64,000 nucleotides of DNA, from NCBI GenBank assembly GCA_050952645.1, contig JBMNLI010000010.1, positions 160,001 to 224,000 of the forward strand. The letters are read 5' to 3'. Source of the stretch: Bdellovibrionota bacterium. Lineage in GTDB: Bacteria > Bdellovibrionota_C > UBA2361 > CAKMMH01. A model generated the notes under the pieces. That model ran no database searches and had not been told where the DNA came from. It saw only the letters and a program-made list of their open reading frames with translations. Positions 6,000-40,457 of the stretch are shown here, piece after piece. A program made the position numbers and the translations under genes. Positions within the stretch are counted from its first letter, which is position 1. Each line of letters starts with the position of its first letter.

Positions 6000-6078
6000 G
6001 GCTCTTCACGTTTTAAGGTAGGTTTTAGACCTTAAAATTAGTATCACTCACCTCGACGAAGCACAAAAGAAAATTGAC
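6000..6078 (-). mobile_element. Partial copy (one end plus internal segment) of the TIR-bounded MITE-like element
   Basis: GGCTCTTCACGTTTTAAGGTAGGTTTTAGACCTTAA is the reverse complement of the right end of the 39.8-40.5 kb copies, and internal homology continues to ~6078. Confidence 0.8.
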
Positions 6079-6311
6079 TTTAAAGAAATTTTAGAACTAA
6101 AAATTTTTAAACTAAAAAAGTAGCGACAAAAAACTTTTTAAAAACTTATTAAAAATCTTTTAGTTAGCCGCCTTGTAAGCCATTATTAAAACAAAAACTG
6201 AAACCTTTTAAATAAAAACTCATCTTATTTTTACAGAAGTTCTTATCATCTCTAAGGATTTCTTTTACGATTTTAATCTAAAGGTTCTTTTTATAATAGA
6301 GGCGTAAAATT

Positions 6312-7151
6312 ATGGCAAAAGAAAAATTAAGTAAAAAAATAGAAAAAATTTCAACCGACAGTAAGCAAGGAAAATCAAAACAAGCAAAATCTTCATTAAA
6401 AATAAGCAAATCTGTAGTGCCTAATAAGGTTGAGGTTTCAAATAAGAAAAGCTATAAGAAGAGTTATAAGATAGATCTGCGCATACTTCCCCCTACAAAC
6501 CTAGGGCCCTTTGCGATATCTGGGCTTGCGGTTGCGCCAGCTATTATAAAATTGTGTAAAGTAAAGAAGATCGATGTTATAGGTATTATAGATAATTTCC
6601 AAGGTGATTTTTTAGATAGGCTTCAAAAACTAAGCTTCGACTATCCACTTACGATTTTGCCAGCTATCGATTTACAAATAAAAGTGGATAAGTATGAGGA
6701 TATAATTTTAACTTGTTTTTTTGAAAGTTCTGAAACATCATCGACCATTAAGGATTTTTTAAATTTATTAGAAGTGCCATCGTCTTGCTATGGGAAAGAG
6801 GCTTACCCAGTTAAATTGCCATTAGATATTATATTAGAACATTTAGAAGCGTTTGATGGGTTTGCTATTCCAAGTAGGGTAGACAAAACTCCTAATAGAA
6901 AATGCGCCATTCCTATTTTAGTAGAAAAATATGGTTTTAGGACGTTTGAGGTAGTGTATCAAGACGACACGAAAGCGTTATTTAAAAAACTATGGCCTAA
7001 AGAGCACTTTAATATCTTTAGTTTCTCAAATGCAAATGCGTTAGCTCAAGTTGGGAACAGAGCCGAAAAGATTAAACTAGCTGAACTAAATTTTTCAGGC
7101 ATCAAAAACTTTATGATGAGAAGCGATGCTATATCTTTTGATATAAACTAA
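6312..7151 (+). CDS. PHP-domain-like protein lacking the metal-binding histidines
   Basis: DLRILPP / IGIIDNF / ILPAIDL / IPSRVDK align with PHP DLHxHT / AITDHN / PGxE / IPAH motifs. Confidence 0.6.
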   Translation: MAKEKLSKKIEKISTDSKQGKSKQAKSSLKISKSVVPNKVEVSNKKSYKKSYKIDLRILPPTNLGPFAISGLAVAPAIIKLCKVKKIDVIGIIDNFQGDFLDRLQKLSFDYPLTILPAIDLQIKVDKYEDIILTCFFESSETSSTIKDFLNLLEVPSSCYGKEAYPVKLPLDIILEHLEAFDGFAIPSRVDKTPNRKCAIPILVEKYGFRTFEVVYQDDTKALFKKLWPKEHFNIFSFSNANALAQVGNRAEKIKLAELNFSGIKNFMMRSDAISFDIN

Positions 7152-7162
7152 ACAAATTATTT

Positions 7163-7244
7163 AGTTCTTTAATACGCTTTAAGTGAACCGATTAAGACGG
7201 CAAAAAATCTATTTAACTAGAATAGCTTAAAACGTGAAAGAGCC
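7163..7244. mobile_element. Degenerate short copy of the MITE-like element
   Basis: AGTTCTTTAATACGCTTTAAG ... CTTAAAACGTGAAAGAGCC ends, between convergent genes. Confidence 0.65.
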
Positions 7245-7264
7245 GTTTTTTAATATATAACGCC

Positions 7265-10200
7265 TTAAACAAAATCAACATTTACGCTTGCAAAGTTTTG
7301 TTCTAATTCATCGCTAAAATCGTCAGTTGCCGATACGTTTATATTATTACTAGAGATGTCTTTTAATTGTAATAAAACCCTTTCATCATCTAAATTAAGC
7401 ATTATCTTTAATGGACAATTCCCCTCGTTTTTTCTTACTATCTCTTTAAAATCCTTTTTCTTACTCCTAAACTCTTCTAAATCATCGATAGTAATAATAA
7501 CTGAGCTAGCTTTGCCCCTTCTAACCTCAGATAACACCTTTGCCTCACTAGCTATAAATGTAGTCCTATTTTCCGTTATATCAAGCTTCCCTGATACCAA
7601 TAAAGGCTCTTCCCTTTCTAAAGATTCTCCAATCTTTCTATAAGCATCAGGCCAAACAAAAGTTTCTATCGAACCCGTGTCATCTTCTAATAAAAAATTA
7701 GCATACCTCTCCCCTTTCCTAGTGTTTTTTAATTTAAGAAACGTTACGACACCCGCAAGAGAAATGGAATTTACATTTTTAGGAGGCTTCTCTTTTGCTA
7801 CATTTATACTTATTACATTCAACTTTTTTAACAACATTTTATACTTATAAAGTGGATGCCCAGAAATATAAAAACCTAATGCTTCCTTTTCTAAAGATAA
7901 CAACACATTACTTGAAAACTCTAGCATATTACTTCTTTTTCTCTCTATGGTATAAGAGCCTTCACAAAAATCAAAAAGAGAAACCTGCTCAGCATCTTTT
8001 TCTTTTTGAATAGCAGAAGCTTGCTTTAAAACGAAATCTAAAATCATAAGATTCTCATTTTTACTAACCCCTGAAAAATCGAATGCTCCAGATTTTATTA
8101 AATTCTCTAATACTCTCTTATTTAAAGCACTAACTGGAACCCTTAAAACTAAATCCTCTAAATCTTTATACTCACCACACTTTTCTCTCTCTTCAATAAT
8201 AGCTAAAACGGCTTTTTCACCTACCGCCTTTATCGCGGAAAGCCCGAACCTAATCTTTCCTGCATTGACAGAAAAATTCGCATAACTCTTATTCACATCG
8301 GGAGGTAAAATCTTTATCCCATGCTTTTTACACTCATTAAAATTCTTCAAAACCTTGTCCGTATCATCCGCCTCATGGCTCATCACAGCAGCCATAAACT
8401 CTACTAAATAATGCGCCTTTAAATACGCCGTCTGATACGTAATTAAAGCGTAAGCCGCCGAATGGCTCTTATTAAAACCATACCTAGCAAATGTTTCCAT
8501 TTGTGAAAATACAGTTTCAGCTACTTTTTTACTAATATTGTTAGAAACACAACCTTTTATAAAGGCAGGCTTCTGCTCTGCCATTTCTTCTGCTATCTTT
8601 TTACCCATCGCACGCCTTAAAAGATCTGCTTCGCTTAGAGTAAAATTAGCTAGCGTTCTTGCGATTTGCATTATTTGCTCTTGGTAAATCATAATGCCAT
8701 AAGTATCTTTTAAAATATCCGCAAGCAAAGGATGCTCATACTCTACCTTTTCTCTTCCATGCTTTCTTTCTATATACCTATCTACCATTCCAGCATCTAA
8801 GGGACCGGGGCGATAAAGCGCATTTAACGCCACTAAATCCTCAAACCTAGTAGGCGCAATTCTAACCGTAATATCTGTAATCCCTGAAGATTCTAATTGA
8901 AACACACCTACTGTATCTCCAGCTCTTAAAAGTTCAAAAACTTTCTCATCATCTAGCGGTATATGTGAAAGGTCAACGGTCTCCCCTCTTGAGCCCTTTA
9001 TAATATCTAAAGCCGTTTTTATAACCGTTAAAGTTTTTAAACCTAAAAAGTCAAACTTTACTAAACCTACTTTCTCTACATACTTCATCGAGTATTGCGT
9101 AACGTCGTGCCCGAACTTATCGATCATTAGTGGCACTATATCACTTAACGGTCTATCTGCGATTATAACACCTGCCGCATGCGTCGAAGCGTGACGCGTC
9201 AACCCCTCTAGCTTCATCGCATGTCGCATCAGTTCTTGCCCGTCATTTTCAGCATACTCTTTTAGTTTAGGCTCTAATTCTAACGCTCTTTTAATATCAA
9301 CCTCGGCTCCTTGCCTTTGATTTGGAATAAGACTTGCTACTCTATCGGTTTCTTGGTAGCTTACTCCTAAAACTCTACCCACATCTTTTATAGCATTTTT
9401 AGCTTTTAACGTTCCAAATGTCGCTATTTGTGCTACGTTATCTTTACCATATTTATTAGACACATACTCTAAAACTTTCTCACGCCCTTGAACGCAAAAA
9501 TCCACATCTATATCTGGAAGCGTTATGCGGTCGGGATTTAAAAATCTTTCAAAAAGCAAATCATGCCTTATAGGATCTATATCAGTTATTTGCATAGCAT
9601 ACGCAACTAAAGACCCTGCGCAGCTTCCACGCCCTGGCCCTACGGGAACTCCATTTTGTTTTGACCATACAATAAAATCTGAAACTACTAAAAAATACCC
9701 TGCAAACCCCATGCTATCTATTAGCGATATTTCTCTTTCTAGCCTATCTATATAAACTTTTTCTAACTCTTTAGTGTAATCCTTACTCTTACTTATAATT
9801 TCTAATCTCGCCTTTAAGCCATTTCTAGCTTGCTCAGACATTATCTCTATAAAAGGACGATTTTTTAATTCAGGATCATCACTCTTATACACAGGCATAT
9901 AGTGAATAGAAAAATTAAATTTCGTTTCACACATATCTGCAATTTTTACAGTATTTGCCATCGCCTCTTTTATAGGATAATCCTTAAAATCTTCTAGAAT
10001 TTCTTTAGTGCTTCTTAAATGAAGATCAAACCCTTCAAATGACATTCTGTTTTCATCTGAAAGCTGTTTTTGTGTCGCTATGCACATTAAAATTTCTTGA
10101 GACATACTATCTTCTTTTTCTAAATAGTGGGCATCACAAGTAGGAATAATCGGGATATTATATTCTTTTGAAAGTTCAAATATTCGTTTATTTGTCTCTT

Positions 10201-10771
10201 GTTGCTCTCGATTTTGATGAGGCTGAATCTCTAGGTAAAATCTATCTTTAAAAGTCGTGTTATAAAAGTCTAGCGTGTTTTTAAGTTCTTGCTCTTTGCC
10301 GGCCCTGATAAGAAAGGGAATCTCTCCTTGCAAACAAGCACTACTAATAATAAGCCCTTCGTTATATTTTGATAAAAGTTCCCAATCGACTCTCGGTTTA
10401 AAATAAAAACCCTCTTTATAAGATAAACTAGTAAGCTTACATAAATTTCTATACCCAGCATCATCCATCGCAAGAGCGATTATATGAAACGTTCCACCGC
10501 CACCATTTGCTAAAGTTTTTCTTTCAAACCTATCTTTTGGGGCTACATAAAGCTCACAACCTATAATAGGTTTAACATTAAAATCTTTTGCAGTTATATA
10601 AAACTCTACCGCTCCATGCATATTCCCATGGTCTGTCATAGCGACAGCTTTTTGATTAAAACTTTCCGCTTTTCTTAATAAATCATCTAGTTTTATAGCG
10701 CCATCTAGCAAACTATAATGAGTGTGAACGTGTAAATGAACAAAATTTATATCTTCTTGCACAAAAAACAT
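7265..10771 (-). CDS. dnaE: DNA polymerase III alpha subunit
   Basis: FVHLHVHTHYSLLDG PHP, GPGRGS, PDIDVDF, KFDFLGL, YGFNKSH, C-terminal OB fold. Confidence 0.98.
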   Translation of the reverse strand: MFFVQEDINFVHLHVHTHYSLLDGAIKLDDLLRKAESFNQKAVAMTDHGNMHGAVEFYITAKDFNVKPIIGCELYVAPKDRFERKTLANGGGGTFHIIALAMDDAGYRNLCKLTSLSYKEGFYFKPRVDWELLSKYNEGLIISSACLQGEIPFLIRAGKEQELKNTLDFYNTTFKDRFYLEIQPHQNREQQETNKRIFELSKEYNIPIIPTCDAHYLEKEDSMSQEILMCIATQKQLSDENRMSFEGFDLHLRSTKEILEDFKDYPIKEAMANTVKIADMCETKFNFSIHYMPVYKSDDPELKNRPFIEIMSEQARNGLKARLEIISKSKDYTKELEKVYIDRLEREISLIDSMGFAGYFLVVSDFIVWSKQNGVPVGPGRGSCAGSLVAYAMQITDIDPIRHDLLFERFLNPDRITLPDIDVDFCVQGREKVLEYVSNKYGKDNVAQIATFGTLKAKNAIKDVGRVLGVSYQETDRVASLIPNQRQGAEVDIKRALELEPKLKEYAENDGQELMRHAMKLEGLTRHASTHAAGVIIADRPLSDIVPLMIDKFGHDVTQYSMKYVEKVGLVKFDFLGLKTLTVIKTALDIIKGSRGETVDLSHIPLDDEKVFELLRAGDTVGVFQLESSGITDITVRIAPTRFEDLVALNALYRPGPLDAGMVDRYIERKHGREKVEYEHPLLADILKDTYGIMIYQEQIMQIARTLANFTLSEADLLRRAMGKKIAEEMAEQKPAFIKGCVSNNISKKVAETVFSQMETFARYGFNKSHSAAYALITYQTAYLKAHYLVEFMAAVMSHEADDTDKVLKNFNECKKHGIKILPPDVNKSYANFSVNAGKIRFGLSAIKAVGEKAVLAIIEEREKCGEYKDLEDLVLRVPVSALNKRVLENLIKSGAFDFSGVSKNENLMILDFVLKQASAIQKEKDAEQVSLFDFCEGSYTIERKRSNMLEFSSNVLLSLEKEALGFYISGHPLYKYKMLLKKLNVISINVAKEKPPKNVNSISLAGVVTFLKLKNTRKGERYANFLLEDDTGSIETFVWPDAYRKIGESLEREEPLLVSGKLDITENRTTFIASEAKVLSEVRRGKASSVIITIDDLEEFRSKKKDFKEIVRKNEGNCPLKIMLNLDDERVLLQLKDISSNNINVSATDDFSDELEQNFASVNVDFV

Positions 10772-11087
10772 CCTTTAATAAAACAAACTCTAATATAACT
10801 CTAATATAAAAGGATAAACTAGAATAAGTTTAACCGCAACAATGTAAGAAAAAGAAAATAAAGATATTTTTTAAAAAAAAGTTTCTTTTAATAACTACTT
10901 TAAATTAAAGATAATTTTACTCGAAAAAATAAATTTTACGCTAAGCTTTATATACAAAACTTTTACAAAAAATTACAAAAATTAAAGCAACGATTCTAAA
11001 AAAATATCATTTTACTTATATACATAAAAAAACATACTAAAAAAATATTCAAAAAAAAAAATACAAAAAAATAGGAGAATAGTTAAT

Positions 11088-11300
11088 ATGAAAAACAATG
11101 ATAAAATCAATTTAGAAGAGTTTATAAATAGCCAAATTGAAACTGTGGAAATTACTATCGGAGACTTAATCGAAGCTATTTCAAATATTTCATTAGGCAT
11201 TTGTAATAATAAAGAAGAGGCTTATAAATTAACGTCTGAAAGAATATCTGCAATCTTAGCTCAAAACGATAAAGACCTTGAGAGCATAGAAACAAAATAA
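11088..11300 (+). CDS. Small hypothetical protein
   Basis: AGGAG RBS before ATG; 70 aa with helical amphipathic character; first gene before the ABC pair. Confidence 0.65.
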   Translation: MKNNDKINLEEFINSQIETVEITIGDLIEAISNISLGICNNKEEAYKLTSERISAILAQNDKDLESIETK

Positions 11301-11331
11301 TCTTTTTATAAAATCTTTTTATAAAATCTTT

Positions 11332-12054
11332 ATGCTTAAAGTAAAAAATATTTCTAAAAATTTTGAAAATTTCAATGTTTTAAAAGATTTAAACTTTGAA
11401 GTAAAAAAAGGTGAAATCTCCGTTTTTCTAGGCGTAAATGGCGCTGGAAAAACTACTACTCTTAAAATTATAACTGGAATTTTAAGCCCTAGTAGCGGAG
11501 AAATTCTAATAGATGATAAAAACTTTAAAGAGCATTCAAAGTATATAAAAAGCATTACTGGGTACGTTCAAGACAGACCTTTTTTTTATGAAAAGCTTTC
11601 AGTTAGAGAATTTTTAAGATTTATAGCAGGGCTTTATAATCTAGAAAAAAAGTTTGCAGATAATCAAATTGAAAAACTACTTACCCATTATAAAATAGAA
11701 AACAAGATAGATGCTCTTATAGAGAGCTTATCTCATGGCATGAGGCAACGCCTCTCTATCTGTGCTTCGCTTATCCACTCCCCAAAGCTTTTAGTTATCG
11801 ATGAACCCATGGTTGGGTTAGACCCTAGTGGTGCTAAACTTTTAAAAACCTCTTTAAAAGAGTACGCAAAATCTAGCACTGCTATTTTAATATCTACACA
11901 TAGTTTAGAAGTCGCAGAAGAGCTTGCCGATAATATTCTAATAATAGATAAGGGGCAAATAGTAAAAAATGCGCCTCTTAAAGATATTAAAAATGATAAA
12001 AATTTTACTTCATTAGAAGAACTTTTTATAAATATTACCTCTAATGCATTATAA
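11332..12054 (+). CDS. ABC transporter ATP-binding protein
   Basis: GVNGAGKTT Walker A, LSHGMRQR signature, VIDEP Walker B. Confidence 0.95.
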   Translation: MLKVKNISKNFENFNVLKDLNFEVKKGEISVFLGVNGAGKTTTLKIITGILSPSSGEILIDDKNFKEHSKYIKSITGYVQDRPFFYEKLSVREFLRFIAGLYNLEKKFADNQIEKLLTHYKIENKIDALIESLSHGMRQRLSICASLIHSPKLLVIDEPMVGLDPSGAKLLKTSLKEYAKSSTAILISTHSLEVAEELADNILIIDKGQIVKNAPLKDIKNDKNFTSLEELFINITSNAL

Positions 12055-12064
12055 TTAAAATATT

Positions 12065-13687
12065 ATGAAAATTTTTTTAGCAATAAAACCACGCATTTTA
12101 GAACTATTAAATAGCATTAAGCAGAAAATAAAAACACCTAAAGGGTTTGGCCGAGATTTCTTCTTAATTTTTATCGCATCACTTTTATTATATGCAACAT
12201 TTAAAGGAACTTTGTTTTTAGCTAACATTTTTTCTGTTCCATTTTTTCCACTTAATATGATATTTACAATGCTATTTGCGCTAATTTTATTTTCAGGCGC
12301 CATAATTTCTATAAACGAGTTTTTCGTTTCAAAAGATTTAAGTGTTTATTTAACCTCTCCTATTTCAAATTTTAATTTTTATATAGGAAAAATTATTATT
12401 ACTGTTTTTACCGCTTCTTGGATGCCCTCTCTTCTCCTTATTCCTATCTTGCTAGCGTTTGGCGTGCACTATAATCAAGGTTTAATTTATTATTTACTTT
12501 TTCCACTTGTAGTTTTACCGATACTAGCAATACCTATTTTTATAGGCAATATCGCTGTTTTTATCTTAGCGAAACTTATACCTTTAAAAGTATTTAAAGA
12601 AGTGTTGTTTTTCTTTTATATTACCATGTTTCTTTTAGTAGGAATTTTTGTAAAAAACTTATTTACTTTAAAATTTGATAATAATATTAGTGGGAATATT
12701 AATGGAATAGAAGCCGCTTCATCTCTTTCAAGTTATATGCCTTTTGAGTGGGGTGCTATTTTTTTAAACAACTTATTAAAAGAAAATAGTATTTCATTAA
12801 ATTATTTTCTACTTTTATATATAGTTTTTTTTACACTTCTTTTTATTTCATATTTAGTTTTTAAGAAATATTATTTTATCTCACTAAATGCAGCACATTC
12901 TTTTTCATCTGCTAAGACTCACAGAGTAAAAATATTAGAAAACGCTATATATAAAATTACTAACTTTTTAGGCACTGCAAGGCAAGAGATACTTTTAAAG
13001 GAATACAAAACTTTTCTTAGAAATATTGGGCAATCTTCTCAAATATTTTTATTACTCGGCATCGTGTTTTTATATTTTAGTAATTTAAGATTTATTACGA
13101 CACTTTCTTCATTAAATAATATTTACATGGCTATTATAAGTCTAGGAGTATGCACTTTTATTTTGATAGCTTTTTGTTCAAGGTTTGTTTTTCCATCTCT
13201 TTCACTAGAGGCAAAAGCTTACGATATATTTTTACAAAGCCCTATTAGTTTAAGATTATTTTATAATTCAAAAAAATTATTTTGGTTTGTTTTTTTAAGT
13301 TTAATATCTACTACCATTTTCATCGCAACCTCTTTAGCGCTATCGCTTTCTCCTATATATATTTTTGCAAATTTTTTTATAGGTCTTATCTTTTCTTACG
13401 GACTTATAAATATTGCAATGTTTGTAGGGAGTTCTTTTTTAAAATTAAATTGGAAAAATCCTTACGAACTTTGTTCTTCAGTTGGAAGCCTATGCACGAT
13501 GCTTTTAAGTATTTGTTATTTAATTATTTTTAGCATTCTTATTTATTATTTGTTTGATTATATAAGCTTAAACTACTTACCTTTAAAATTAACCATTATT
13601 TTGCTTGGAGTATTGTTTTTAAATATACTACTTTCTAATATCTTAACTAATATCGGCTTTAAAAATTTAAAGCAAAAAATTTCCTAA
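12065..13687 (+). CDS. Putative ABC exporter permease (two-repeat, ~12-14 TM)
   Basis: Highly hydrophobic; DL..YLTSP, KE.K.FLR and FPSLSLE motifs; follows the ABC ATPase. Confidence 0.8.
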   Translation: MKIFLAIKPRILELLNSIKQKIKTPKGFGRDFFLIFIASLLLYATFKGTLFLANIFSVPFFPLNMIFTMLFALILFSGAIISINEFFVSKDLSVYLTSPISNFNFYIGKIIITVFTASWMPSLLLIPILLAFGVHYNQGLIYYLLFPLVVLPILAIPIFIGNIAVFILAKLIPLKVFKEVLFFFYITMFLLVGIFVKNLFTLKFDNNISGNINGIEAASSLSSYMPFEWGAIFLNNLLKENSISLNYFLLLYIVFFTLLFISYLVFKKYYFISLNAAHSFSSAKTHRVKILENAIYKITNFLGTARQEILLKEYKTFLRNIGQSSQIFLLLGIVFLYFSNLRFITTLSSLNNIYMAIISLGVCTFILIAFCSRFVFPSLSLEAKAYDIFLQSPISLRLFYNSKKLFWFVFLSLISTTIFIATSLALSLSPIYIFANFFIGLIFSYGLINIAMFVGSSFLKLNWKNPYELCSSVGSLCTMLLSICYLIIFSILIYYLFDYISLNYLPLKLTIILLGVLFLNILLSNILTNIGFKNLKQKIS

Positions 13688-13808
13688 AAATTCCTATAAA
13701 TAAGTTGATTGAAACAAAAATAAATTGCATAACCTTTCTAATAGCGTTTGCTAAAGGTTAAAGATAATAAAAAGGTTTTAACATAGCCTTTAACATAGAA
13801 AGGATATT

Positions 13809-14999
13809 TTGAATACCATGCGAAATAAAAGAAAACGAGGCGAAAATAAGCAAGCACGTGAGTTTAGGGACGTGATTAAGCTTCTTCCTCCTTCTTCTAT
13901 TTGGAATTATGCGCATTATTATTACATAATTGAGTTTATTAAACTAAGGAGACAACCTGAAAAAACGAATGAAGGTAATTTAGAATATAAACAACAGTTA
14001 GATGCCTTAGAAGAACTCGTTAATACTTGGGCTAAAATCAAAAAATATTTTGCTATAATTCTATTAAGTTTGCTTAAAATAATATTGCGCTTTTTTTGTC
14101 TTTTCGGGCTTACCTCTAAGTCTATAAATAAAAGCATAAAAGATATTGAAAATGCCTTTGACAGACAGGCTACAAACTTAAAGAATGGAGCTTCTCTTAA
14201 TACTAAGACTGACGATGAAATTTCGGCAGAAAAAGCTATTGCGCGCTTTGAAGAAAAGATAGAAAAGCTTACTAAACGCTACGAGAAAAATGACAATATA
14301 TCATCATATATAGATATATTCTATTCTAGCGTGATAAAATTTGGAACTCAAAAAGCTAAAACTGAAATCGTTTATCTTAAGGCTAAAGAAGAAAAACAAC
14401 GAAGTCAAGCTTTATGGAGAGATAGTTTTATAATAAGAGCTTTCGGGTTTGGAACTTTTAAGCTTGCTAAACGCCTTCTTGCGATCTTAGCTGTAGGTAT
14501 GGCATTGCCTTTCCTAATTAACTTACTAGTAAAACCAACCCCCGACTACTCAAGCGCAGAGAGTTTCGTTCATGGGATAGGGTGGACAGCAATTTTTTGG
14601 GCAATTACGCTTGCGATAACTCTATATTTTAACAATAAACGTATGATTAAAATATGGGATCGGGCAGAAGGTGCTATCTTAGAGGCTCAATTACTTCACA
14701 TCGAAAGCACTGCTACTCTTTGTGATGAAACTCTAGTAGATATTAAAAACTGCCTTAATTTGCCTTTAGAACTTATCGAAGACAAAATGGCTAAAACTAT
14801 AATTGAAGACAACTTTAAATCTATATATAATATGATAAAAGGATATGAAGAAAGAGCAATTTCCTTAAAAAGAGAAATAGCTAGGCACAATAAGAAAGTT
14901 AGCCTTCTTGGAATCATAAGAAACTTACTCGACCAAGCGGCTCAAGGTGGTGCAGTGTCAGAAGGCGCAGATATATTTGAAAGTATGTTTGGTGGTTGA
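13809..14999 (+). CDS. Hypothetical membrane protein (coiled-coil, 3 hydrophobic segments)
   Basis: 396 aa ORF with RBS AAGGA; no family recognised. Confidence 0.7.
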   Translation: MNTMRNKRKRGENKQAREFRDVIKLLPPSSIWNYAHYYYIIEFIKLRRQPEKTNEGNLEYKQQLDALEELVNTWAKIKKYFAIILLSLLKIILRFFCLFGLTSKSINKSIKDIENAFDRQATNLKNGASLNTKTDDEISAEKAIARFEEKIEKLTKRYEKNDNISSYIDIFYSSVIKFGTQKAKTEIVYLKAKEEKQRSQALWRDSFIIRAFGFGTFKLAKRLLAILAVGMALPFLINLLVKPTPDYSSAESFVHGIGWTAIFWAITLAITLYFNNKRMIKIWDRAEGAILEAQLLHIESTATLCDETLVDIKNCLNLPLELIEDKMAKTIIEDNFKSIYNMIKGYEERAISLKREIARHNKKVSLLGIIRNLLDQAAQGGAVSEGADIFESMFGG

Positions 15000-15113
15000 T
15001 AAAAATCGCTCACTCATTCTCGATACCATATAGCGAAGCTAAAGACGCTATTATCTATAAGTATAGAGAGTCACTAAACTTAAAATTTAATGGCTCTCTA
15101 TTTTTTTATATTT

Positions 15114-15902
15114 TTATAGCTCATATTTTTTATAATTACTTGGGATTTTAATTATATAAATTTTAGGGTCTAGAGTGGCATCATACTCTTGTTTTATAAT
15201 ATTAAAATTCATATATAAATTAGCCTGAGGGAATATAACAAATACCATATTATCCGATTTTTTTAATCTCATTTTTAACTCTTTACCCTTATCCCATAAA
15301 TCGTAATTTAGTAATTTATAATTATTTAAATCAAACTCTATATACTCATTTTTATCCTTACTTATAACTTGAAGCAATTTTTCTTTTTTATTCGTAGAAT
15401 TATTCGTAGAACTTAAAATATAGAAATCGTAATTTTTTAAATTTTCATAACTTAAATCGCTATTTCCTACAAAACTCTCTAATAGTGATTTATAATCAAC
15501 TTCTTCTTTCCATAATTTTTTTAAAATATCATTTGCGCTATCAGATGTTAGCACTATTTTTTGTTGTCTATCTAGAAACACTGCACCACATTTATTTTGG
15601 GTTAATATATGTAGTGATAAAAAAGTATCTGGTGGGAAAGCCTCAACTCTTAAATACCCATTTTTATCGTATAAAAATAGATACCTAAATTTATACCCTA
15701 CGCCGTTTTCTACTACCACTACATCTGTTAAAAATCTTACATTAGAAAATTCTTTTTTATTTTTACTTATCTTATTAAAAATTTCTTCTTTCTGATTATC
15801 CCCTAAAGCCATCTCGCTAGGTGTAGGAAACTTTGCTTTCTCTCTTACAGCACAAGCTGAAAAACAAAAACTTATTACTATAAATAAAAAATATTTTTTC
15901 AT
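15114..15902 (-). CDS. Putative lipoprotein, LolB/DUF4292-like
   Basis: Signal peptide with lipobox FSA-C; LRVEAFPP; downstream of a TPR lipoprotein, a common arrangement. Confidence 0.55.
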   Translation of the reverse strand: MKKYFLFIVISFCFSACAVREKAKFPTPSEMALGDNQKEEIFNKISKNKKEFSNVRFLTDVVVVENGVGYKFRYLFLYDKNGYLRVEAFPPDTFLSLHILTQNKCGAVFLDRQQKIVLTSDSANDILKKLWKEEVDYKSLLESFVGNSDLSYENLKNYDFYILSSTNNSTNKKEKLLQVISKDKNEYIEFDLNNYKLLNYDLWDKGKELKMRLKKSDNMVFVIFPQANLYMNFNIIKQEYDATLDPKIYIIKIPSNYKKYEL

Positions 15903-15933
15903 AACTATTATTAAATTTCAAATATTAAATTTT

Positions 15934-17691
15934 TTATTTTAGATTATTTAACTTTTTTTCCATTCGCTTTATCGATTTTTGATCCTCTTTACCTAAATTA
16001 TCACTCTTTTTTGCTAATCCTTGTTTATAATATCTTTTTGCAAGAGTCTCATTTCCATCGGCTAAATACGCATCTCCTATATGCTCTAAAATAACTATAT
16101 CATCATCTGCTAAATTAAGTGCTTGCAAAAGTAAGTCGAGTGCCACTTTATACTTTTTTTTCTTATACTTTACCCAACCTAACGTATCTAGATAATATGG
16201 ATTTTTAGGTTCTTTTTTTATCGCTCTTTTAGCGTATTCTTCCGCCTTGTCTAAATTTATATTATCTTCTGCCCAAGAATAAGCTATATAGTTTAAGGCC
16301 TCAGCATGCTCTGGATTTTTAGTTAACACATACTTCATCTTTTCTAAAGCCACATCTTTTTTACCCATTTCATATTGCAAAATTGCGTATTGAAATATCA
16401 TGTCTATATCACCAGGGTTTTTTTCTAGGTATTCGAGAATTAAATCTTCAGTCTTAGATTTTTTATCTAATTTCCTATAAACCATAATAAGTGTCATCGC
16501 TATTCTTTTATCAAATGGCACATTCTTATAAGCTTCTTCTAAAACTTTTTGCGATTCAACATCTCTATTTAATTTTCTTAAAACGTAAGATAAAACCAAT
16601 TTTGCATCGACGTAATTGCTCGCATCGTTTTCAAATTTCACTTTTTCTAATTCGATTGCGGCTTCTTCATATTTTTTTTGTGCCACATAGACCGTTCCTA
16701 AAGCGTATCTTGCGCCTAAATGATCGGGATTAGAAGCTAAAAGCAAATTTAATGCTTTAGCTGCTTGCTCAGGCATATTTTTTTGCATATATATTAAGGC
16801 TATCTTATATCTAACCTCAACTGAAGCCTCTTTAGTTTCATTTAATGTATTAAAATGAGATAGAGCCTCATCTAAATTATTATCTTGAAGCGATAACTCT
16901 GCTAATATTCGTCTAGCTAATGCATGATTTGGTTTTTCTTCTATAACCTTTAAAGCTACTTTTTTAGCTTCTTCTAGTTTGCTTTGTAAAATTAGCACTC
17001 TACAATATTCCATAGCTAAAATATCGTTATCTTGCTCTAACTCATAGGCTTGTTTTAATATGCTTTCAGCTTTTTCAGTTTCTTTTTGTTTCTCATATAC
17101 TCTAGCTAAATATTGGTATGAAATTATCTCATCTGGAAATTTTAAAATCATTTCTTCTAGCAACTCTTGAGCTTTCTTTATATTCCCTTCTTCTCTATAA
17201 ATATCTGCTAGTAAAAGATAAGCATTTTTTTGTTTTTCATCACTCTGTATAATGAATTTATAAGCTTTTTTAGCTTCATCACTTTGCGAAAGTGCCTCAC
17301 AAAGCCCGGCTTTGATGTAATAGTGGTCTAATTTTTTAGGTGCTTCTTTTATTGCAATATTTATTTCTCCTAAGGCTTTTTCTAAAAGCCCTTCTCTTAA
17401 ATACAGCTCTGCTAATTTAGCATGCACCGTTGCCGAGTTATCCTCAGAAAGCTCACCAGCTTTTTTAAGATTATCGAGCGCTGACTCAAAATTTTGCTCC
17501 GACAGCTCCATATTCCCCATTAAAAAATGGTGAAAAGACGAAGATTGCTTTTCCATGTTATCTTTCATTAAGTTTAATTTAGTATTTTTTATATTGACAG
17601 TCGGCGGAAGCTCTGTTCGTTGCGTATTAGAACAAGCTACTATTACAGTGGTAAAAACGAATATGGATGCAAATATTATCTTTCTTTTCAC
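15934..17691 (-). CDS. TPR-repeat lipoprotein
   Basis: Lipobox IVA-C; many TPRs; ALNYIAYSWA...YLDTLGWV C-terminal motif. Confidence 0.88.
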   Translation of the reverse strand: MKRKIIFASIFVFTTVIVACSNTQRTELPPTVNIKNTKLNLMKDNMEKQSSSFHHFLMGNMELSEQNFESALDNLKKAGELSEDNSATVHAKLAELYLREGLLEKALGEINIAIKEAPKKLDHYYIKAGLCEALSQSDEAKKAYKFIIQSDEKQKNAYLLLADIYREEGNIKKAQELLEEMILKFPDEIISYQYLARVYEKQKETEKAESILKQAYELEQDNDILAMEYCRVLILQSKLEEAKKVALKVIEEKPNHALARRILAELSLQDNNLDEALSHFNTLNETKEASVEVRYKIALIYMQKNMPEQAAKALNLLLASNPDHLGARYALGTVYVAQKKYEEAAIELEKVKFENDASNYVDAKLVLSYVLRKLNRDVESQKVLEEAYKNVPFDKRIAMTLIMVYRKLDKKSKTEDLILEYLEKNPGDIDMIFQYAILQYEMGKKDVALEKMKYVLTKNPEHAEALNYIAYSWAEDNINLDKAEEYAKRAIKKEPKNPYYLDTLGWVKYKKKKYKVALDLLLQALNLADDDIVILEHIGDAYLADGNETLAKRYYKQGLAKKSDNLGKEDQKSIKRMEKKLNNLK

Positions 17692-17898
17692 GAGAGAAAT
17701 ACCCTTAAAACAAAAACTTTAGTAAAAACTTAAAATCTCATAAGGTATACTAACTTATAATTATTTTCTTAACAATTAGATATTTATTTTAAATACTAAA
17801 AAATAAACTTAAAAGCATCTTAAATTTTTATTAAACCTTTACATATTTTTTTTATATTGGTATATTGTGGATTGTTCAAAAAATCAATTTTTAAGTTT

Positions 17899-17971
17899 GA
17901 CCCTATCGTCTAGTGGTCTAGGATGCTAGCCTCTCACGCTGGAGACACGAGTTCGAACCTCGTTAGGGTCA
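17899..17971 (+). tRNA. tRNA-Glu(CTC)
   Basis: GACCCTA/TAGGGTC acceptor stem, CT-CTC-AC anticodon loop, GTTCGAAC T-loop; CCA not encoded. Confidence 0.93.
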
Positions 17972-18220
17972 TACATTTTTTTCCTTCTTCTTAACTTTTC
18001 TTTTTTATTTCCTTTACTCTCTTAATTCTCTTATTCTCTAATTATGTTCTCTAATTATTCTCTGATTTTTTTCAGAAAATGTATAAAAAATATATATCGT
18101 GTAAATTATATATTGAAAGTCCTTTATTAAAAGCCTTTGTCTTAAAGTAAACATCTTTAAAAAGACTTTTCAATATATAAAATTAACTATAAAAACTAAC
18201 TCATAAGCCGTTAAGCTTAA

Positions 18221-19120
18221 TTATTCATCTACTGCTTCAACTAATGATTTTGCTGGTGCAAATCTAACACGGTTTTTAGCCTTTATATGAACTACCTCGC
18301 CAGTAGATGGGTTTCTTCCTAATCTAGCTTTTGTTTTTCTTATATAAAGTTTGCCAATACCTAAAAATGGAACCTTATATCCTTTAGAAAGAGCATCTAC
18401 TATAAATGAAGTGATATCATCACATATTTCTTTAGCTTGAGTTCTTTTTTCTAATCCACAAAAAGCTTTAACATGATCATAAAATTCTAATTGAGTATAG
18501 CTAAGCGTCGACTCATTGTTAGGTTTCATAGCAGACGTCATTTTCGCATTTTCTTCTTTTTCCACAGCCTTAGTTGCCTTAGTAGTTTTTGTAGCCTTTG
18601 CTTGTTTCTTATCGCTTACTACGCTACTTTTAGCTTCTTTAGTTTTAGTTTCTTTCGTTTTGGCTTCTTTCTTAGAAGCTACTTTTTTATTCTCTGCTTT
18701 TTTAGGCTCTGTTTTTTTAGTTTCAGTTTTTTTAGCTGTCCCTTTCTTAGCGGTAGTTGTAGCTTTTGCTTTAGTAGTAGTTTTAGAAGCGGTAGCTTTC
18801 TTTGCTACTTTAGTAGCTTTAGTAGAAACTTGTTTTTTTGCTTTATCTGCCGTAGTTTTATCTTTAGTAGCCTTACTAGTTTTTTTAGCAACACTTTCTT
18901 TTTTAGCACTAGTAGTTTTAGCTGTAGCCTTTTTAGTCGTAGTTTTCTTAGGCTCTGCTTTCTTAGCAGTAGTTTTCTTATCGACTACTTTTTTCTCTGT
19001 AGCTTTCTCTGCATTCTTTTTAGCCGTAGTTTTTTTAGTCGTCGTTTTCTTTTCTGCTACTTTTTTCGTTGTAGTTTTCTTCTCTGCTTTCTCTTTTTTA
19101 GTCGAAGTTGACTTTGCCAT
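18221..19120 (-). CDS. HU/IHF-family DNA-binding protein with long Lys/Ala/Thr-rich N-terminal tail
   Basis: C-terminal GIGKL...RLGRNPSTGE...RVRFAPAKSL HU fold; start MAKST at 19120 follows AGGAG. Confidence 0.88.
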   Translation of the reverse strand: MAKSTSTKKEKAEKKTTTKKVAEKKTTTKKTTAKKNAEKATEKKVVDKKTTAKKAEPKKTTTKKATAKTTSAKKESVAKKTSKATKDKTTADKAKKQVSTKATKVAKKATASKTTTKAKATTTAKKGTAKKTETKKTEPKKAENKKVASKKEAKTKETKTKEAKSSVVSDKKQAKATKTTKATKAVEKEENAKMTSAMKPNNESTLSYTQLEFYDHVKAFCGLEKRTQAKEICDDITSFIVDALSKGYKVPFLGIGKLYIRKTKARLGRNPSTGEVVHIKAKNRVRFAPAKSLVEAVDE

Positions 19121-20136: not shown

Positions 20137-20168
20137 AAATTTAATATATCAAAATCTGAGGTAAAAAA

Positions 20169-37400: not shown

Positions 37401-38186
37401 GAACTGCTACTAGACGAACTCCCCTTAGGTGAACTAGATGTATCGAAAATTTGCGCAGTCCTAAAAAAACCTACATGAAACGAATCTGCTATGAGAGGCT
37501 CATCATCTAACAACTTAAATATATCTAATATTATACCAGACTTAATAAAAATCTTCCCTCCCTTCATTGTCCTAAGTTTTATCGTCTCACTTTCTTTATC
37601 AACGGGAACAAAATCTACATATTTTTCCTTCCTCCACAAACTCCCAGGGAGTTTAGTAGTCTTTATACTATCATTATCTAATTTTATACCAGGAATTAAA
37701 ATACCATACTTAGCTATACACGGCTCCCCTCTTAACTCAAAATATTTAAAGCCTAGTTGCTTAGGTGTCGCCACCTTTTTCGATAATGCTAAATTATAAG
37801 CCGTAATCCAAAATTTACATATAGTAGGACAATCTTTAGATAGAGCTTGCACCTCAGGCACTTCGCATACTTCATCTATTTCACTTCGAGTTTTCCCCCT
37901 TATAGACTCACAATTAGGAACGTCTTTCTCTCTTAAACCGTCTAGGCAATACTCTCTTAAAGCTACCATAAAATGAGGTGAAATATCGACTACAAATTGC
38001 ACTGGTCTATTTTCTACAGCTATTAATAATCTTAGATTCCTATCATCTAAACACATCATATGAAAAACAAATACGAAAACATTCGTCACTACCCATGTAA
38101 GTACAAAATAATAAAAACAAACTATAGCCTGTTTCTGTTAAAACGCTACCACGACTCGAATGGGACTTTTTATATTTATTTTTCAT
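34418..38186 (-). CDS. Giant TadE/pilin-like-anchored, poly-Ser stalk, Cys-rich protein; 5' end frameshifted at ~38128
   Basis: ORF 34418-38089 plus upstream frame MKNKYKKSHSSRGSVLTET. Removing one base gives RGSVLTETAIVCFYYFVLTWVVTNVFVFVF. Confidence 0.65.
35990..37440 (-). repeat. Poly-serine coding tract with internal block duplications
   Basis: AGT/TCT/AGC/TCA codon repeats; blocks near 36600-36760 and 36770-36930 are near-duplicates. Confidence 0.9.
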
Positions 38187-38564
38187 CAAATTTTTATTTT
38201 GAAAGAAATTTTTAAAGAAATTTTTTAATCGACTGTTTGAGGTTAAAAGGAATTTTAACATAAGAAGATTTTTTACTTTTTTTATATATTATTTAATAAT
38301 TAAAATTCAAAAACGATGTATAGCAAACTTTCTATGATATATGCTCAAATATTTCTTAAGAAAAATCTGCTCTATAAAATTTGTCTAAAATATGAACTAA
38401 CAATATAAATTTATAATACTTACTTGCAAATAACAAGATTAACATTTTAAGAGTAAAGCAAGGCTTTTAAAAATAACCTTAAAAATACAAAGAACCAAAT
38501 TAAATAAAAATCCGATAAAATCTCTACCTTTTTAAAGATATTTTTTTAAGTTATATTTAGCTTT

Positions 38565-39800
38565 ATGGAAAATAATATACTAATTCGCAGAATAGAAAAA
38601 ATTAAAAAATCTTTAAGCAAGCTTTCTAGCAATGCTACTTTACTTTTATCGAGTGCCCCAGAAATCATAAAGTCTCGTGATATAACTTTTGATTTTAAAC
38701 AAGACACTAATTTTTATTATTTTACAAACTCACAAATAAAAAACGCTGTGCTTTTAATAAAATCAAATAGTGATGCTCCCATCTTGCTTTCACCTAGCCA
38801 AAGTAAAGAAGACATATTGTGGCATGGAGAAAGTGAGTCGGCAAAATCTTTAGCAAAAAAAATCGGTGCCGTTTACAAAGACTGTGAACTTAATGAGAAA
38901 GACATTATCTCTTATTTAAAAGAGTGCAATACTCTATGTTATAGCTCTTATAAATATTCTTTATCTAATAAAGTAGCTAAGTTTTTATTAAAAGAAAACA
39001 CTTCTACATTAGAGCGATTAAAGCTTCCATATAAATTTATAAATCAAGACTTTATAATATCACCGCTAAGACAAATAAAAGAAAAAGGCGAAATAGAAAA
39101 TATAAAAACCGCTGTAAAGATTACGCTCAATGCCATAGAGGAATTAAAAAACTTTTTACGCCCTGGGCTTACCGAACTCGAAGTTAAGCACTTTTTTGAA
39201 AATGAAATAAAAAAACAAGGAGCAAGCATAGCGTTTGATACTATTTGCGCAAGTGGTAAAAATGCAGCAACGCTTCATCACACTAGTTCTAATAAAGTGC
39301 TTAAAAAAGGAGAAATGCTTCTTATCGATTGTGGTGCTGAATATAATATGTATGCGGCAGATATTAGTAGAACGCTTCCAGTTTCTAGCACGTATTCTCC
39401 TATTCAAGAAATACTTATAAATGGAGTCAAAAAGGCTAAGCGTGATGCTATAAATAAGGCCGTTGTAGGTGCAAAATTTAAAGATGTGCAACAAGCTTCA
39501 GAGCTAGCTATTATAGAGTTATTAAAAGAGCTAAAAATTTTAAAAGGAAATAAGCTAAACATTTTAAAACAAAAATTACATAAAGAATTTTATCCTCACG
39601 GCGTTGGGCACTCTCTTGGGCTTGATACTCACGACTTAGGGAAACTTTTCGGCGATACTATTTTAAAAGAAAATATGGTTATTACGATAGAGCCCGGAGT
39701 TTATTTTAGTAAAAAGATTAACGATATCGTGCCGTGTGGAGTTAGGATAGAAGATGATATTATAATTAGAAAGAAAGAGTCTAAAGTGATAGAGTTTTAA
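38565..39800 (+). CDS. pepP: Xaa-Pro aminopeptidase (M24B)
   Basis: LIDCGAE..Y.ADISRT, HGVGHSLGLDTHD, TIEPGVY, GVRIEDD. Confidence 0.9.
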   Translation: MENNILIRRIEKIKKSLSKLSSNATLLLSSAPEIIKSRDITFDFKQDTNFYYFTNSQIKNAVLLIKSNSDAPILLSPSQSKEDILWHGESESAKSLAKKIGAVYKDCELNEKDIISYLKECNTLCYSSYKYSLSNKVAKFLLKENTSTLERLKLPYKFINQDFIISPLRQIKEKGEIENIKTAVKITLNAIEELKNFLRPGLTELEVKHFFENEIKKQGASIAFDTICASGKNAATLHHTSSNKVLKKGEMLLIDCGAEYNMYAADISRTLPVSSTYSPIQEILINGVKKAKRDAINKAVVGAKFKDVQQASELAIIELLKELKILKGNKLNILKQKLHKEFYPHGVGHSLGLDTHDLGKLFGDTILKENMVITIEPGVYFSKKINDIVPCGVRIEDDIIIRKKESKVIEF

Positions 39801-40457
39801 ATAAAATGGTTCTTTGACGTTTTAAGAGGGCTTAGAAAAATTGTTTTTTTAGGGGTTAGCTTAAAAGAAAATCGGAGCTAGTTAAAGCTTGCGGAGATTT
39901 TCTTTTGGGCTTCGTCGGGGTGAGTGATACTTCTTAAGGTCTAAAACCTACCTTAAAACGTGAAGAGCCAGTTTATTTTAGTAAAAAGATTAACGATATC
40001 GTGCCGTGTGGAGTTAGGATAGAAGATGATATTATAATTAGAAAGAAAGAGTCTAAAGTGATAGAGTTTTAAATAAAATGGTTCTTTGACGTTTTAAGAG
40101 GGCTTAGAAAAATTGTTTTTTTAGGGGTTAGCTTAAAAGAAAATCGGAGCTAGTTAAAGCTTGCGGAGATTTTCTTTTGGGCTTCGTCGCTGAGTTATAC
40201 TAATCTTAAGGTCTAAAACCTACCTTAAAACGTGAAGAGCCAGTTTATTTTAGTAAAAAGATTAACGATATCGTGCCGTGTGGAGTTAGGATAGAAGATG
40301 ATATTATAATTAGAAAGAAAGAGTCTAAAGTGATAGAGTTTTAAATAAAATGGTTCTTTGACGTTTTAAGAGGGCTTAGAAAAATTGTTTTTAGGCTTCG
40401 TGGAGTTGGTGATACTAACTCTTAAGGTCTAAAACCTACCTTAAAACGTGAAGAGCC
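39698..40457 (+). repeat. Tandem array of three units (110-bp pepP 3' end and flank + MITE): 39698-39969, 39970-40241, 40242-40457
   Basis: Identical pepP-derived segments AGTTTATTTTAG...GTTTTAAATAAAAT, each followed by an element copy (162, 162, 106 bp). Confidence 0.93.
39808..40457. mobile_element. Three MITE copies (39808-39969, 40080-40241, 40352-40457); 8-bp TSD AATAAAAT
   Basis: GGTTCTTTGACGTTTTAAG...CTTAAAACGTGAAGAGCC ends; AATAAAAT precedes every copy and follows the last one (40458-40465). Confidence 0.85.

Follow-up and report, generated by a model that had tools for sequence, protein, structure and literature searches.

The ISL3 family of IS is defined in ISfinder by 8-bp direct repeats and by ends beginning GGCTCTT. 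The closest described system to the repeats analyzed here comes from Microcystis. The accessible part of that account (PMC11448079) gives the same hallmark for ISL3 and describes a 187-nt MITE paired with ISL3 elements whose repeats begin GGCTCTTCG and which have direct repeats of 8 nt. This Microcystis aeruginosa MITE is non-coding, occurs in many copies, folds into a stem-loop, and carries 8-nt direct repeats and inverted repeats matching an ISL3 IS of the same genome. ISL3 members make circular intermediates, as stated in the available portions of two reports (bioRxiv 10.1101/2023.06.07.543989; PMC3812183), and IS1411, ISPst9, and ISPpu12 are named in reference lists as circle-forming members.

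Several other repeats are similar in kind. ERIC, Correia/NEMIS, RUP, BOX, and SPRITE are, in the accessible sections of PMC3184786 and PMC3049150, short intergenic elements with terminal inverted repeats and long hairpins, found in excess downstream of genes and in spacers between convergent ones, and for which effects on mRNA stability or termination have been proposed. The elements reported here resemble them in these respects but belong to another transposase family and are 85% co-oriented with their flanking genes. REP/REPIN repeats (RAYT, Y1) are likewise abundant intergenic palindromes with an orientation relative to genes, whereas the present elements have 8-bp duplications and DDE-type terminal repeats and reside in a genome with no Y1 transposase. 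A REP/REPIN identity was considered and rejected: PF01797 (RAYT, Y1 transposase) is unmatched in this genome, which is 93.75% complete, while control genomes do match. An intrinsic terminator family (G+C-rich stem followed by a T run) was also rejected, as 0 terminator-like sites occur in 39500-40700; the only such site in 19800-22100, at 19923-19939, lies outside the elements.

The window, that is, the whole stretch of DNA analyzed, comprises 64,000 nt of a Bdellovibrionota bacterium (GCA_050952645.1, contig JBMNLI010000010.1, positions 160,001-224,000 of the forward strand), and counts were extended to the genome of 1.95 Mb. Its dispersed repeats are very probably a non-coding MITE family with the ends and 8-bp target duplications of an ISL3-family IS of the same genome, whose transposase is predicted to move it, this being the best explanation of the evidence. 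The end motif GGYTCTTYRCGTTTTRAG, searched with up to 3 mismatches, has 9 matches in the window compared with 0.98 expected, a number reached in 0 of 100 shuffles. They lie at 6000, 7226-7243(-), 20044, 20119-20136(-), 21631, 21883-21900(-), 39952-39969(-), 40224-40241(-), and 40440-40457(-), and the genome holds 251, so that the repeated ends recognized in the original prediction are borne out. BLAST with subfamily consensuses (E <= 1e-3) finds 184 loci totalling 23.8 kb, or about 1.2% of the genome.

Inverted pairs of the conserved 18-24 bp end motif within 450 bp define 60 paired elements genome-wide, 40-278 bp in length. Exact 8-bp target duplications flank 13 of these, compared with 0.77 expected from a shuffled-partner control on the same 60 elements (a 17-fold enrichment), and another 10 have a single mismatch (2.5 expected), while the flanks of 37 differ at two or more positions. 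The 23 best duplications are 95% A/T, A-rich first and T-rich after. None of the 60 lies inside an ORF, although ORFs cover about 81% of the genome; all are intergenic, and overlap with ORFs of at least 90 aa is likewise zero, which makes them non-coding. The family thus shows the features by which MITEs are recognized: short, non-coding sequences in many copies, terminal inverted repeats, and target duplications of fixed length.

An autonomous element with the same ends is also present, although its ORF is frameshifted. It is an ISL3-family IS of 1,860 bp, found as a single copy outside the window (C10:339480-341339), with terminal sequences GGTTCTTCACG and GGCTCTTCACG, the same 24-bp ends as the MITEs, and the 8-bp duplication AAAAATTT on both sides. 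It has both the 8-bp direct repeats and the ends beginning GGCTCTT of the family, and with other ISL3 members (NF033550, PF01610) it shares a DDE transposase, an 8-bp duplication, ends starting GG, and one main ORF. Its transposase scores 228.7 bits against NF033550 (ISL3 family transposase; cut-off 180) and 172.9 bits against PF01610 (cut-off 23). PF01610 is matched just once in the genome, at C10:340180-340968, and the statement that the window contains no transposase holds for the ISL3 type. Unlike in known members, the ORF is broken by a 1-nt frameshift at an A6 run, and a comparison with 5.8 billion proteins gives nearest matches of only about 54% identity; for the latter reason the IS, judged by its sequence, counts as an undescribed member of the ISL3 family. 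An ATG at IS position 204 opens a frame of 32 codons, and the main frame, of 423 codons, begins out of phase with it at IS position 281; joining them is possible at the A6 run, the first 26 transposase codons then lying in a different frame from the main ORF. Homologues of 443-450 aa have one frame and carry the N-terminal part. As assembled, the gene would need recoding, or may be dead, or may contain a homopolymer error.

The MITEs fall into subfamilies of about 266, 222, 160, 104, and 93 bp, and the interior of each is conserved genome-wide. The original prediction had described the interiors as largely unrelated and only the ends as constrained. Neither part can be retained: every locus in the window but one (7163-7244) matches a subfamily with a conserved interior, the copy at 6000-6091 and the three MITEs at 39808-40457 have a common right arm, and internal deletions between short TTTTGGG repeats relate the 222, 160, and 104-bp forms as a nested series. 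The subfamily of about 266 bp is the ISL3-family IS minus its interior; IS positions 1642-1860 are 83-93% identical to it, and identity between IS positions 1-24 and the ends of the other subfamilies is 92-100%. Only about 24-31 bp are common to the IS and the 104/160/222, 93, and 65-bp forms, for which reason their proposed descent from the IS relies on the ends. The general identification as MITEs therefore stands and can be made specific, given the enriched 8-bp duplications, the intergenic position of 60 of 60 elements, the ISL3 IS with identical ends, and the subfamily that is its deletion derivative. Compared with the Microcystis aeruginosa MITE as described in the accessible part of PMC11448079, the repeats here start GGYTCTTCACG rather than GGCTCTTCG and show no sequence relation past the first 8-9 nt; at least five size classes exist, one of them visibly cut from the parent IS; the parent is single-copy with a split reading frame; and an orientation bias and tandem arrays occur, which that part does not report.

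Parent IS, deletion derivative, and further reduced forms in one small genome make this a clean, internally documented case of MITE birth. The ISL3 transposase would mobilise the MITEs, and the IS may have arrived by horizontal transfer, with the MITEs multiplying only in this lineage. The family is missing from every relative searched: the end motif is absent from 5 relatives, one of the same genus included, neither the 266-bp nor the 162-bp form occurs in 40 relatives, and a search of 123 further genomes in the phylum (E <= 1e-20) yielded no transposase of this type. Of the two signs of mobility named in the original prediction, 8-bp duplications are enriched genome-wide, and empty alleles were not found, because no relative is close enough. 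Neither empty sites nor transposition events were seen; the same-genus genome has about 82% nucleotide identity in lysS and its intergenic DNA is too diverged to align, and the nearest metagenome lysS locus has 81% identity at the protein level. Logan contigs of four runs contain no joint that skips an element, and at the elements the contigs of runs X1-X5 show only filled sites or breaks at repeats. The family also serves another element. Class C group II introns insert after terminator-like hairpins, and the intron found here inserts directly past the inner palindrome of the 222-bp MITE, on both strands, which makes the MITE its landing pad. The intron, of which the window holds no copy, is a passenger of the MITE and not the MITE itself.

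Within the window, the distances to the nearest preceding stop codon are 12 (6000), 11 (7163), 70 (20044), 19 (21631), and 7 (39808) nt, in agreement with the earlier observation that four of five loci start 7-19 bp past a stop. The locus at 6000-6091 (minus strand) is a truncated copy of the 222-bp type (136 bits to the consensus by BLAST) that keeps the right (B) arm and about 30 nt of the interior, its other end being lost or decayed; it follows a CNNM/CorC-type gene (4479-5987) and is among the minority of copies oriented against the flanking genes. At 7163-7244 there is a degenerate short copy, one end of which has 3 mismatches and an extra A, with no target duplication and no BLAST match to the subfamily consensuses at E <= 1e-3. 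Its neighbours are the ORF 6312-7151, whose stop it follows, and dnaE (7265-10771, minus strand), whose stop is 20 nt away. The copy of the 93-bp subfamily at 20044-20136 (plus strand; 20036-20144 with its duplications) has, as first noted, the exact 8-bp AAATTTAA on each side. It lies between the stop of the ORF 19329-19973 and the start of lysS (32 nt away), pairs with C10:261760-261854, and is bridged as a filled site by Logan contigs of runs X1 and X5. The 266-bp subfamily is represented by the copy at 21631-21900 (minus strand), an internal-deletion derivative of the IS: 21631-21842 aligns with IS positions 1860-1643 at 86.8% identity, and the other terminal repeat occupies 21877-21900. 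Its flanks, AAAAAATG and AAAAAAGA, match at 6 of 8 positions, and it lies between converging stops, 19 nt from that of lysS and 20 nt from that of an oxidoreductase gene.

The last locus had been described as three copies at 39808-40457. Three MITEs are indeed present, at 39808-39969 (162 bp), 40080-40241 (162 bp), and 40352-40457 (106 bp, short form); they are not three insertions but parts of a tandem array with a period of 272 (39698-40457, plus strand), each unit of which consists of 108 bp from the 3' end of an aminopeptidase P gene with the left duplication AATAAAAT, and a MITE. The gene itself (Peptidase_M24 and AMP_N; 38565-39800, plus strand) is intact; one base of its stop codon falls within the left duplication, and the array repeats the final 103 nt of the gene. 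A single pair of duplications flanks the whole array, AATAAAAT being present at 39800-39807 and, as the right copy, once only after the last unit (40458-40465), where the original prediction had placed them. The right terminus of each array MITE abuts AGTTTATTTT exactly. The array would have formed after one insertion, the likely cause being a break or strand transfer at the right terminus, rejoined 116 bp upstream, and then unequal crossing-over.

It is possible, if on balance doubtful, that assembly created the three-unit array, or that its copy number and variable patch at least are artefactual: a real single duplication or a repeat tangle would have been threaded three times through bubbles of near-identical MITEs or strain variants. 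The units are identical save for a right-arm patch of about 20 bp and a 58-bp interior that is absent from unit 3, two places that resemble such bubbles. About ten differences in the patch, in a region well conserved across 63 right arms of the family, with none in the other 250 bp, do not look like neutral decay. No Logan contig crosses a unit junction with 31 nt on each side, and runs X2 and X3 each have a contig that passes unbroken through 39698-39728. However, the junction between the MITE end and AGTTTATTTT must be in the reads for the contig to be built, six further MITE-linked tandem arrays exist in the same assembly, and the two unusual patch variants occur nowhere else in it.

The kind of element is ordinary; its orientation bias with transcription is new and was not part of the original prediction. 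By our own ORF calls (at least 90 aa) rather than an annotation, of 100 same-strand contexts of the 104/160/222 lineage, 85 have the element in the direction of both neighbouring genes, far above chance. The bias persists after clusters are collapsed (75 vs 12) and within 100 bp of a stop (66 vs 11), and orientation follows the gene, not the 60-kb GC skew, in 25 of 33 discordant loci; in divergent spacers it is gone (8 vs 8). Such a pattern is a simple, testable sign of a use for the RNA or of an effect of transcription on which insertions survive. Since orientation is not something that a DDE transposase should determine, the 85% bias calls for the added assumption of selection. The copies that survive would mostly be those lying downstream of genes, in intergenic DNA, and facing one way, perhaps because harm arises from the transcript of the opposite strand or from reading the element backwards.

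A rather unlikely alternative to such purging is that the 104/160/222 lineage, once a MITE, has been domesticated, as the original prediction had tentatively proposed for 3' UTR structure, and is kept for a putatively useful sense transcript, a long G.U-containing hairpin at gene 3' ends or between genes. By analogy with proposals for ERIC, REP, BOX, and SPRITE, its tentative roles would include protection of mRNA 3' ends, ending of transcription, or setting of processing sites; if true, this would show how fast a bacterium gains a common 3'-end structure for many genes. The orientation counts agree with this reading, as does the loss of bias in divergent spacers, out of reach of read-through. 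On average the sense RNA is more stable than the antisense by 13.9 kcal/mol, an advantage seen in 29 of 30 copies and due to some six stem positions that form G.U pairs in the sense strand; this asymmetry is inherited from the family consensus, so the 29 are not independent tests. Enrichment near stop codons was found genome-wide, but only mildly (15 of 60 elements within 20 bp of a stop vs 10.2 expected, p ~0.03), and convergent spacers hold 14 of 60 elements for 14% of intergenic length. MITEs co-transcribed at gene 3' ends alter mRNA stability, according to the accessible part of a review (PMC3184786). Against a useful RNA, there is no terminator-like site at the window copies, no Rfam family matches (best, ar15, 22.7 bits vs a gathering score of 40), and single-copy stem changes are of the G.U type in 10 cases and the A.C type in 5, which is not significant. 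Older copies show no greater bias (82%) than younger copies (88%), the absence of the family from all relatives searched would make any role young and dispensable, and counter-selection of a harmful antisense orientation yields the same pattern without benefit.

A joint reading, speculative and in our view unlikely, would connect these observations. The 104/160/222 lineage would be kept or purged by the strand copied in read-through, about 86% of copies giving the same G.U-stabilised hairpin RNA at gene ends; within one species, an ISL3 element would have given rise to a genome-wide RNA module of 3' UTRs or intercistronic regions. The arrays, with junctions at the right terminus, would be fossils of the ISL3 copy-out step, in which the right end becomes linked either to the left end or to a position left of it, and abortive retrohoming would account for the mutated patch that lies just 3' of the group IIC intron site.

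Orientation might also be set at integration, by transcription or an asymmetric target feature, and not by later selection, which we consider quite improbable. The bias is of similar strength in the least diverged (44 of 50) and the more diverged copies (41 of 50) and holds in all size classes (61 vs 9, 10 vs 3, and 14 vs 3), as such a process would predict. The duplication and flanks, oriented by the element, are symmetric, however (A-rich, then T-rich), divergent spacers show 8 vs 8, and we know of no orientation control in ISL3 elements. That the family is not mobile at all, but a protein-binding palindrome, REP/REPIN-type repeat, or terminator family spread otherwise, would suit its palindromic ends, intergenic position, and many copies near stop codons, but is extremely improbable given the 17-fold enrichment of 8-bp duplications (which the shuffled-partner control argues is no artefact of A/T-rich flanks), ends identical to those of the ISL3 IS with one subfamily built of IS sequence, ends of 24 bp of specific sequence unlike G+C-rich REP stems, a genome without Y1/RAYT transposase, and window copies without terminator-like sites. 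For annotation, these MITEs account for many odd intergenic palindromes and assembly breaks in this lineage.

Within the window, the end motif GGYTCTTYRCGTTTTRAG was found nine times when up to three mismatches were allowed, and all nine matches lie at the loci where the original prediction had placed a dispersed family with conserved ends. Shuffled sequences gave a mean of 0.98 matches, and none of 100 shuffles reached nine. The proposed genome-wide search for these ends was run on the host genome (1.95 Mb in 17 contigs, approximately 31% G+C; the window is C10:160001-224000) and returned 251 matches, or 270 with the last-but-one base relaxed, which yield 60 inverted pairs spaced by under 450 bp; BLAST with subfamily consensus sequences located 184 loci with a combined length of 23.8 kb. 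The predicted 8-bp target duplications are likewise enriched across the genome. When 8-mers were taken at the exact motif edges of the 60 paired elements, the flanks were identical in 13 cases and one base apart in 10, versus 0.77 and 2.5 with shuffled partners, and 37 pairs showed two or more mismatches. The best 23 duplications have a 95% A/T composition and pass from an A-rich first half into a T-rich second half. In the window, the element at 20044-20136 has the exact duplication AAATTTAA on both sides, AATAAAAT precedes position 39808 and again follows 40457, and the flanks of 21631-21900 agree at six of eight positions.

The genome contains a single match to Pfam DDE_Tnp_ISL3 (C10:340180-340968, on the contig of the window), enclosed by a 1,860-bp insertion sequence (IS) at C10:339480-341339. 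This IS begins with GGTTCTTCACGTTTTAGGTGGGTT, carries GGCTCTTCACGTTTTGGGTGGGTT in reverse complement at its other end, and is adjoined on either side by AAAAATTT. Its protein scores 228.7 bits against NCBIfam NF033550 (ISL3 family transposase; cut-off 180) and 172.9 bits against PF01610, and tblastn found no second transposase gene of this kind in the assembly. The approximately 266-bp subfamily is 83-93% identical to IS positions 1642-1860 (86.8% for window 21631-21900), so at least this subfamily is the IS without its middle; the ends of all other forms are 92-100% identical to IS positions 1-24. The predicted MITE family is thus well supported as ISL3-derived, given an ISL3 IS with matching ends and a subfamily derived from it by deletion, and its members would be mobilised in trans. 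The pairing follows the same logic as in Microcystis, where, according to PMC11448079, ISL3 repeats begin with GGCTCTTCG, are flanked by 8-nt direct repeats and are accompanied by a 187-nt MITE.

The ATG at IS position 204 opens a stretch of 32 codons, and the main frame, of 423 codons, starts at position 281 in a different frame. The two can be joined at an A6 run by a 1-nt frameshift 78 nt past the ATG (C10:339480-341339; locus L001, 801-2660). Because the closest homologues among 5.8 billion proteins (approximately 54% identity, 443-450 aa) are encoded in a single frame and include the N-terminal stretch ahead of the zinc-finger cysteines, the transposase gene is not clean as assembled: it needs a frameshift, is defective or carries a homopolymer error. 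The A6 frameshift itself could reflect programmed slippage, decay or such an error. The left end of the IS recurs in truncated form at C17:340019-340300 (89% identity across 288 bp), stopping at the same A-run.

The original prediction regarded the interiors as unrelated between loci. Clustering of the 60 paired elements instead resolved subfamilies with conserved interiors: 23 copies of 136-262 bp (mostly about 222 bp), 15 of 102-114 bp, nine of 242-278 bp, two pairs (65-66 bp and 93-95 bp) and nine singletons of various lengths. Removing from the 222-bp form the 118 bp between two TTTTGGG repeats gives the 104-bp form, and the form of about 160 bp has another, shorter middle. Five types are present in the window: a truncated 222-type (6000-6091), a 93-type (20044-20136), a 266-type (21631-21900), two copies of the 160-type (39808-39969 and 40080-40241) and a 104-type (40352-40457). 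The interiors therefore looked unrelated because the window draws on different subfamilies, not because they vary freely. A composite in which some 59 bp from the left end of the 266-type adjoin a 222-type copy ending TGTTCTTCACTTTTAAAG recurs at C10:336129-336410, C14:7676-7916, C15:84896-84972, C17:233760-233836 and C17:234052-234128; the sharing of one junction by all five loci suggests copying of an element that was already nested or chimeric. Just ahead of the fragment at 6000, a CNNM/CorC-type transporter gene (4479-5987) has a low-complexity, Glu/Lys/Gln-rich tail at 5890-5987.

Placement was assessed against our own set of 1,506 ORFs (at least 90 aa, overlaps resolved greedily), which together span 81% of the genome, and not one of the 60 paired elements falls inside any of them. 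The predicted tendency of copies to start shortly after stop codons holds genome-wide but is mild: a stop codon is no more than 20 bp away for 15 of 60 elements, versus 10.2 expected when each element is randomly placed in its own spacer (p ~0.03), and a start for three, versus 6.0 expected. Convergent spacers hold 14 of 60 elements versus 14% of the intergenic length, and divergent spacers seven versus 22%. This is the usual mild pattern of tolerated insertions.

Orientation, assigned through homology of the asymmetric arms at 147 loci of the 104/160/222 lineage, is strongly biased with transcription. Counting an element as co-oriented when its GGTTC end comes first along transcription, 85 are co-oriented and 15 opposite where both flanking genes lie on one strand (75 to 12 after collapsing clusters closer than 400 bp, p = 3e-12), and the ratio is 66 to 11 for elements no farther than 100 bp from a stop codon. 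At the 33 loci where gene strand and 60-kb GC skew are discordant, 25 elements follow the gene and eight the skew. Convergent spacers give 18 to 9 relative to the nearer stop, and divergent spacers 8 to 8. The ratio is 61 to 9 for elements of up to 125 bp, 10 to 3 for those of 126-190 bp and 14 to 3 for longer ones; the less and more diverged halves give 44 to 6 and 41 to 9 (88% versus 82%, Fisher p = 0.58). In the window, the array at 39698-40457 and the element at 20044-20136 run in the direction of their genes, and 6000-6091 is among the exceptions.

The favoured explanation of this bias is that the antisense orientation would be counter-selected in read-through transcripts. A positive role for the RNA, as suggested by the original prediction, is a live minority reading, and co-transcribed MITEs that change mRNA stability are described in PMC3184786. 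The co-transcribed strand has a mean folding energy of -53.7 kcal/mol versus -39.8 for the other strand, a difference due to some six stem positions that form G.U pairs in the sense strand; 29 of 30 copies show the lower energy on this strand, and the copies are not independent tests because the asymmetry belongs to the family consensus. By our own count, single-copy stem changes favour G.U in 10 cases versus 5, which is not significant. Covariation in the hairpin was rejected, with hardly any double changes and with stem polymorphisms that switch between Watson-Crick and G.U pairs and are inherited, not independent. In an Rfam scan of the window, only tRNAs reached the gathering score, and the sole match at 39700-40500, ar15 at 22.7 bits against a gathering score of 40, was rejected as chance. 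Fixation of the bias by oriented insertion is less likely, since the insertion target is symmetric and untranscribed divergent spacers are unbiased.

The array at 39698-40457, which takes in the 3' end of the aminopeptidase P gene (Peptidase_M24; 38565..39800, + strand), was detected by Tandem Repeats Finder with a period of 272, 2.6 copies and 98% matches. Its unit consists of the final 108 bp of that gene, including the left duplication, followed by the MITE. The right duplication occurs once, past the last unit, so the three copies of the original prediction go back to a single insertion that was then duplicated in tandem, with the right boundary exactly at the right terminus of the element. 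The units differ at two places only, a 58-bp interior that is missing from unit 3 and a right-arm patch of about 20 bp (39917-39936, 40189-40208 and 40396-40417) with about ten differences. Because the same stretch is well conserved across 63 right arms of the family, the variation is not neutral decay; it reflects either a real local process or assembly threading bubbles, and both readings are kept. The compared Logan contigs of five metagenome runs (X1-X5) end at repeats, and none spans a junction between array units.

Six further MITE-linked tandem arrays, each of 2-4 units at a period between 130 and 280 bp, lie at C7:144944-145558, C9:42988-43744, C10:104139-104592, C10:293794-294233, C12:187287-187662 and C17:71302-71734. 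The right-arm terminus is at the junction, within 1 nt, in five of the seven arrays (that of the window and four of the six others), and one array has an interior-to-interior junction. On one reading the junctions may be made by the transposase, since ISL3 elements form circles with abutted ends, as reported in bioRxiv 10.1101/2023.06.07.543989 and PMC3812183. On another, the candidate cause is polymerase stalling at the hairpin base. For the window array, simple slippage at GAGCC microhomology was rejected: the motif is present near both break points with an offset of 3 nt and would not give the observed junction. A 5-bp ATTTT spacer separates head-to-tail copies in two arrays (C12:187287-187662 and C17:71302-71734). 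As general background, to which we give no weight as evidence, ISL3 circles have a spacer of a few base pairs. A variant left end with TTGACG is common to the window array, C12:187287 and C10:293794.

Five 222-bp MITE copies contain a group II intron, at C10:227972-230085 (locus L168, 4 kb past the right edge of the window), C6:23218-25333, C7:128297-130391, C17:116391-118509 (ORF shortened) and C12:308748-310870 (ORF broken). The intron matches Rfam RF02001 (106.7 bits) and RF00029 (42.1 bits), and its 442-aa ORF has RVT_1 and GIIM domains and no endonuclease domain match. It is always positioned directly past the inner palindrome of the MITE, TTTTGGGC^TTCGT or, on the other strand, TTTTAAGC^TAAC, and the array patch begins 5 nt 3' of this site. 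Within the patch stretch, each of the three copies with the intron in that orientation has a different single substitution.

Relatives were searched in genomes that are 55-98% complete and often lack assembled repeats, so absences mean not found in those searched. The end motif, with at most one mismatch, was found in none of five relatives (one of the same genus, two of the same family and two of the same order). A 266-bp copy gave only weak partial matches in two of 40 relatives (E 2e-5 to 5e-4), a 162-bp copy had no match in the 40, and a search for a transposase of this type through 123 further genomes of the phylum returned none at E <= 1e-20. Orthologues of lysS in same-genus and same-family genomes have 91% and 87% protein identity; the intergenic DNA beside lysS does not align with theirs, so empty and filled sites cannot be read there. 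A metagenome scan with LysRS returned 80 loci (best 81% identity), with no same-species contig and the end motif in none. Searched against genome contigs, the 18-nt end motif gave at least 72 single matches, with about 140 expected by chance on our own arithmetic; among the matches listed, none continues past 18 nt or has an ISL3 gene next to it, and many fall within a coding motif conserved in other phyla.

DNA nearly identical to the window is present in digester or bioreactor metagenomes from four studies. A 15,630-bp Logan contig of X1 is identical to window 6033-21663, and a contig of X5 crosses the filled 20044 site; among the contigs of X1-X5, which break at repeats, no joint skips an element. 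In the X2 digester metagenome, the strain covering window 5500-22500 is about 2% diverged, with 139 substitutions listed and a 14-nt deletion at 19224. Its sequence takes in a portion of the degenerate copy at 7163-7244, bearing a 1-nt insertion at 7187, which places the origin of that copy before these strains diverged.
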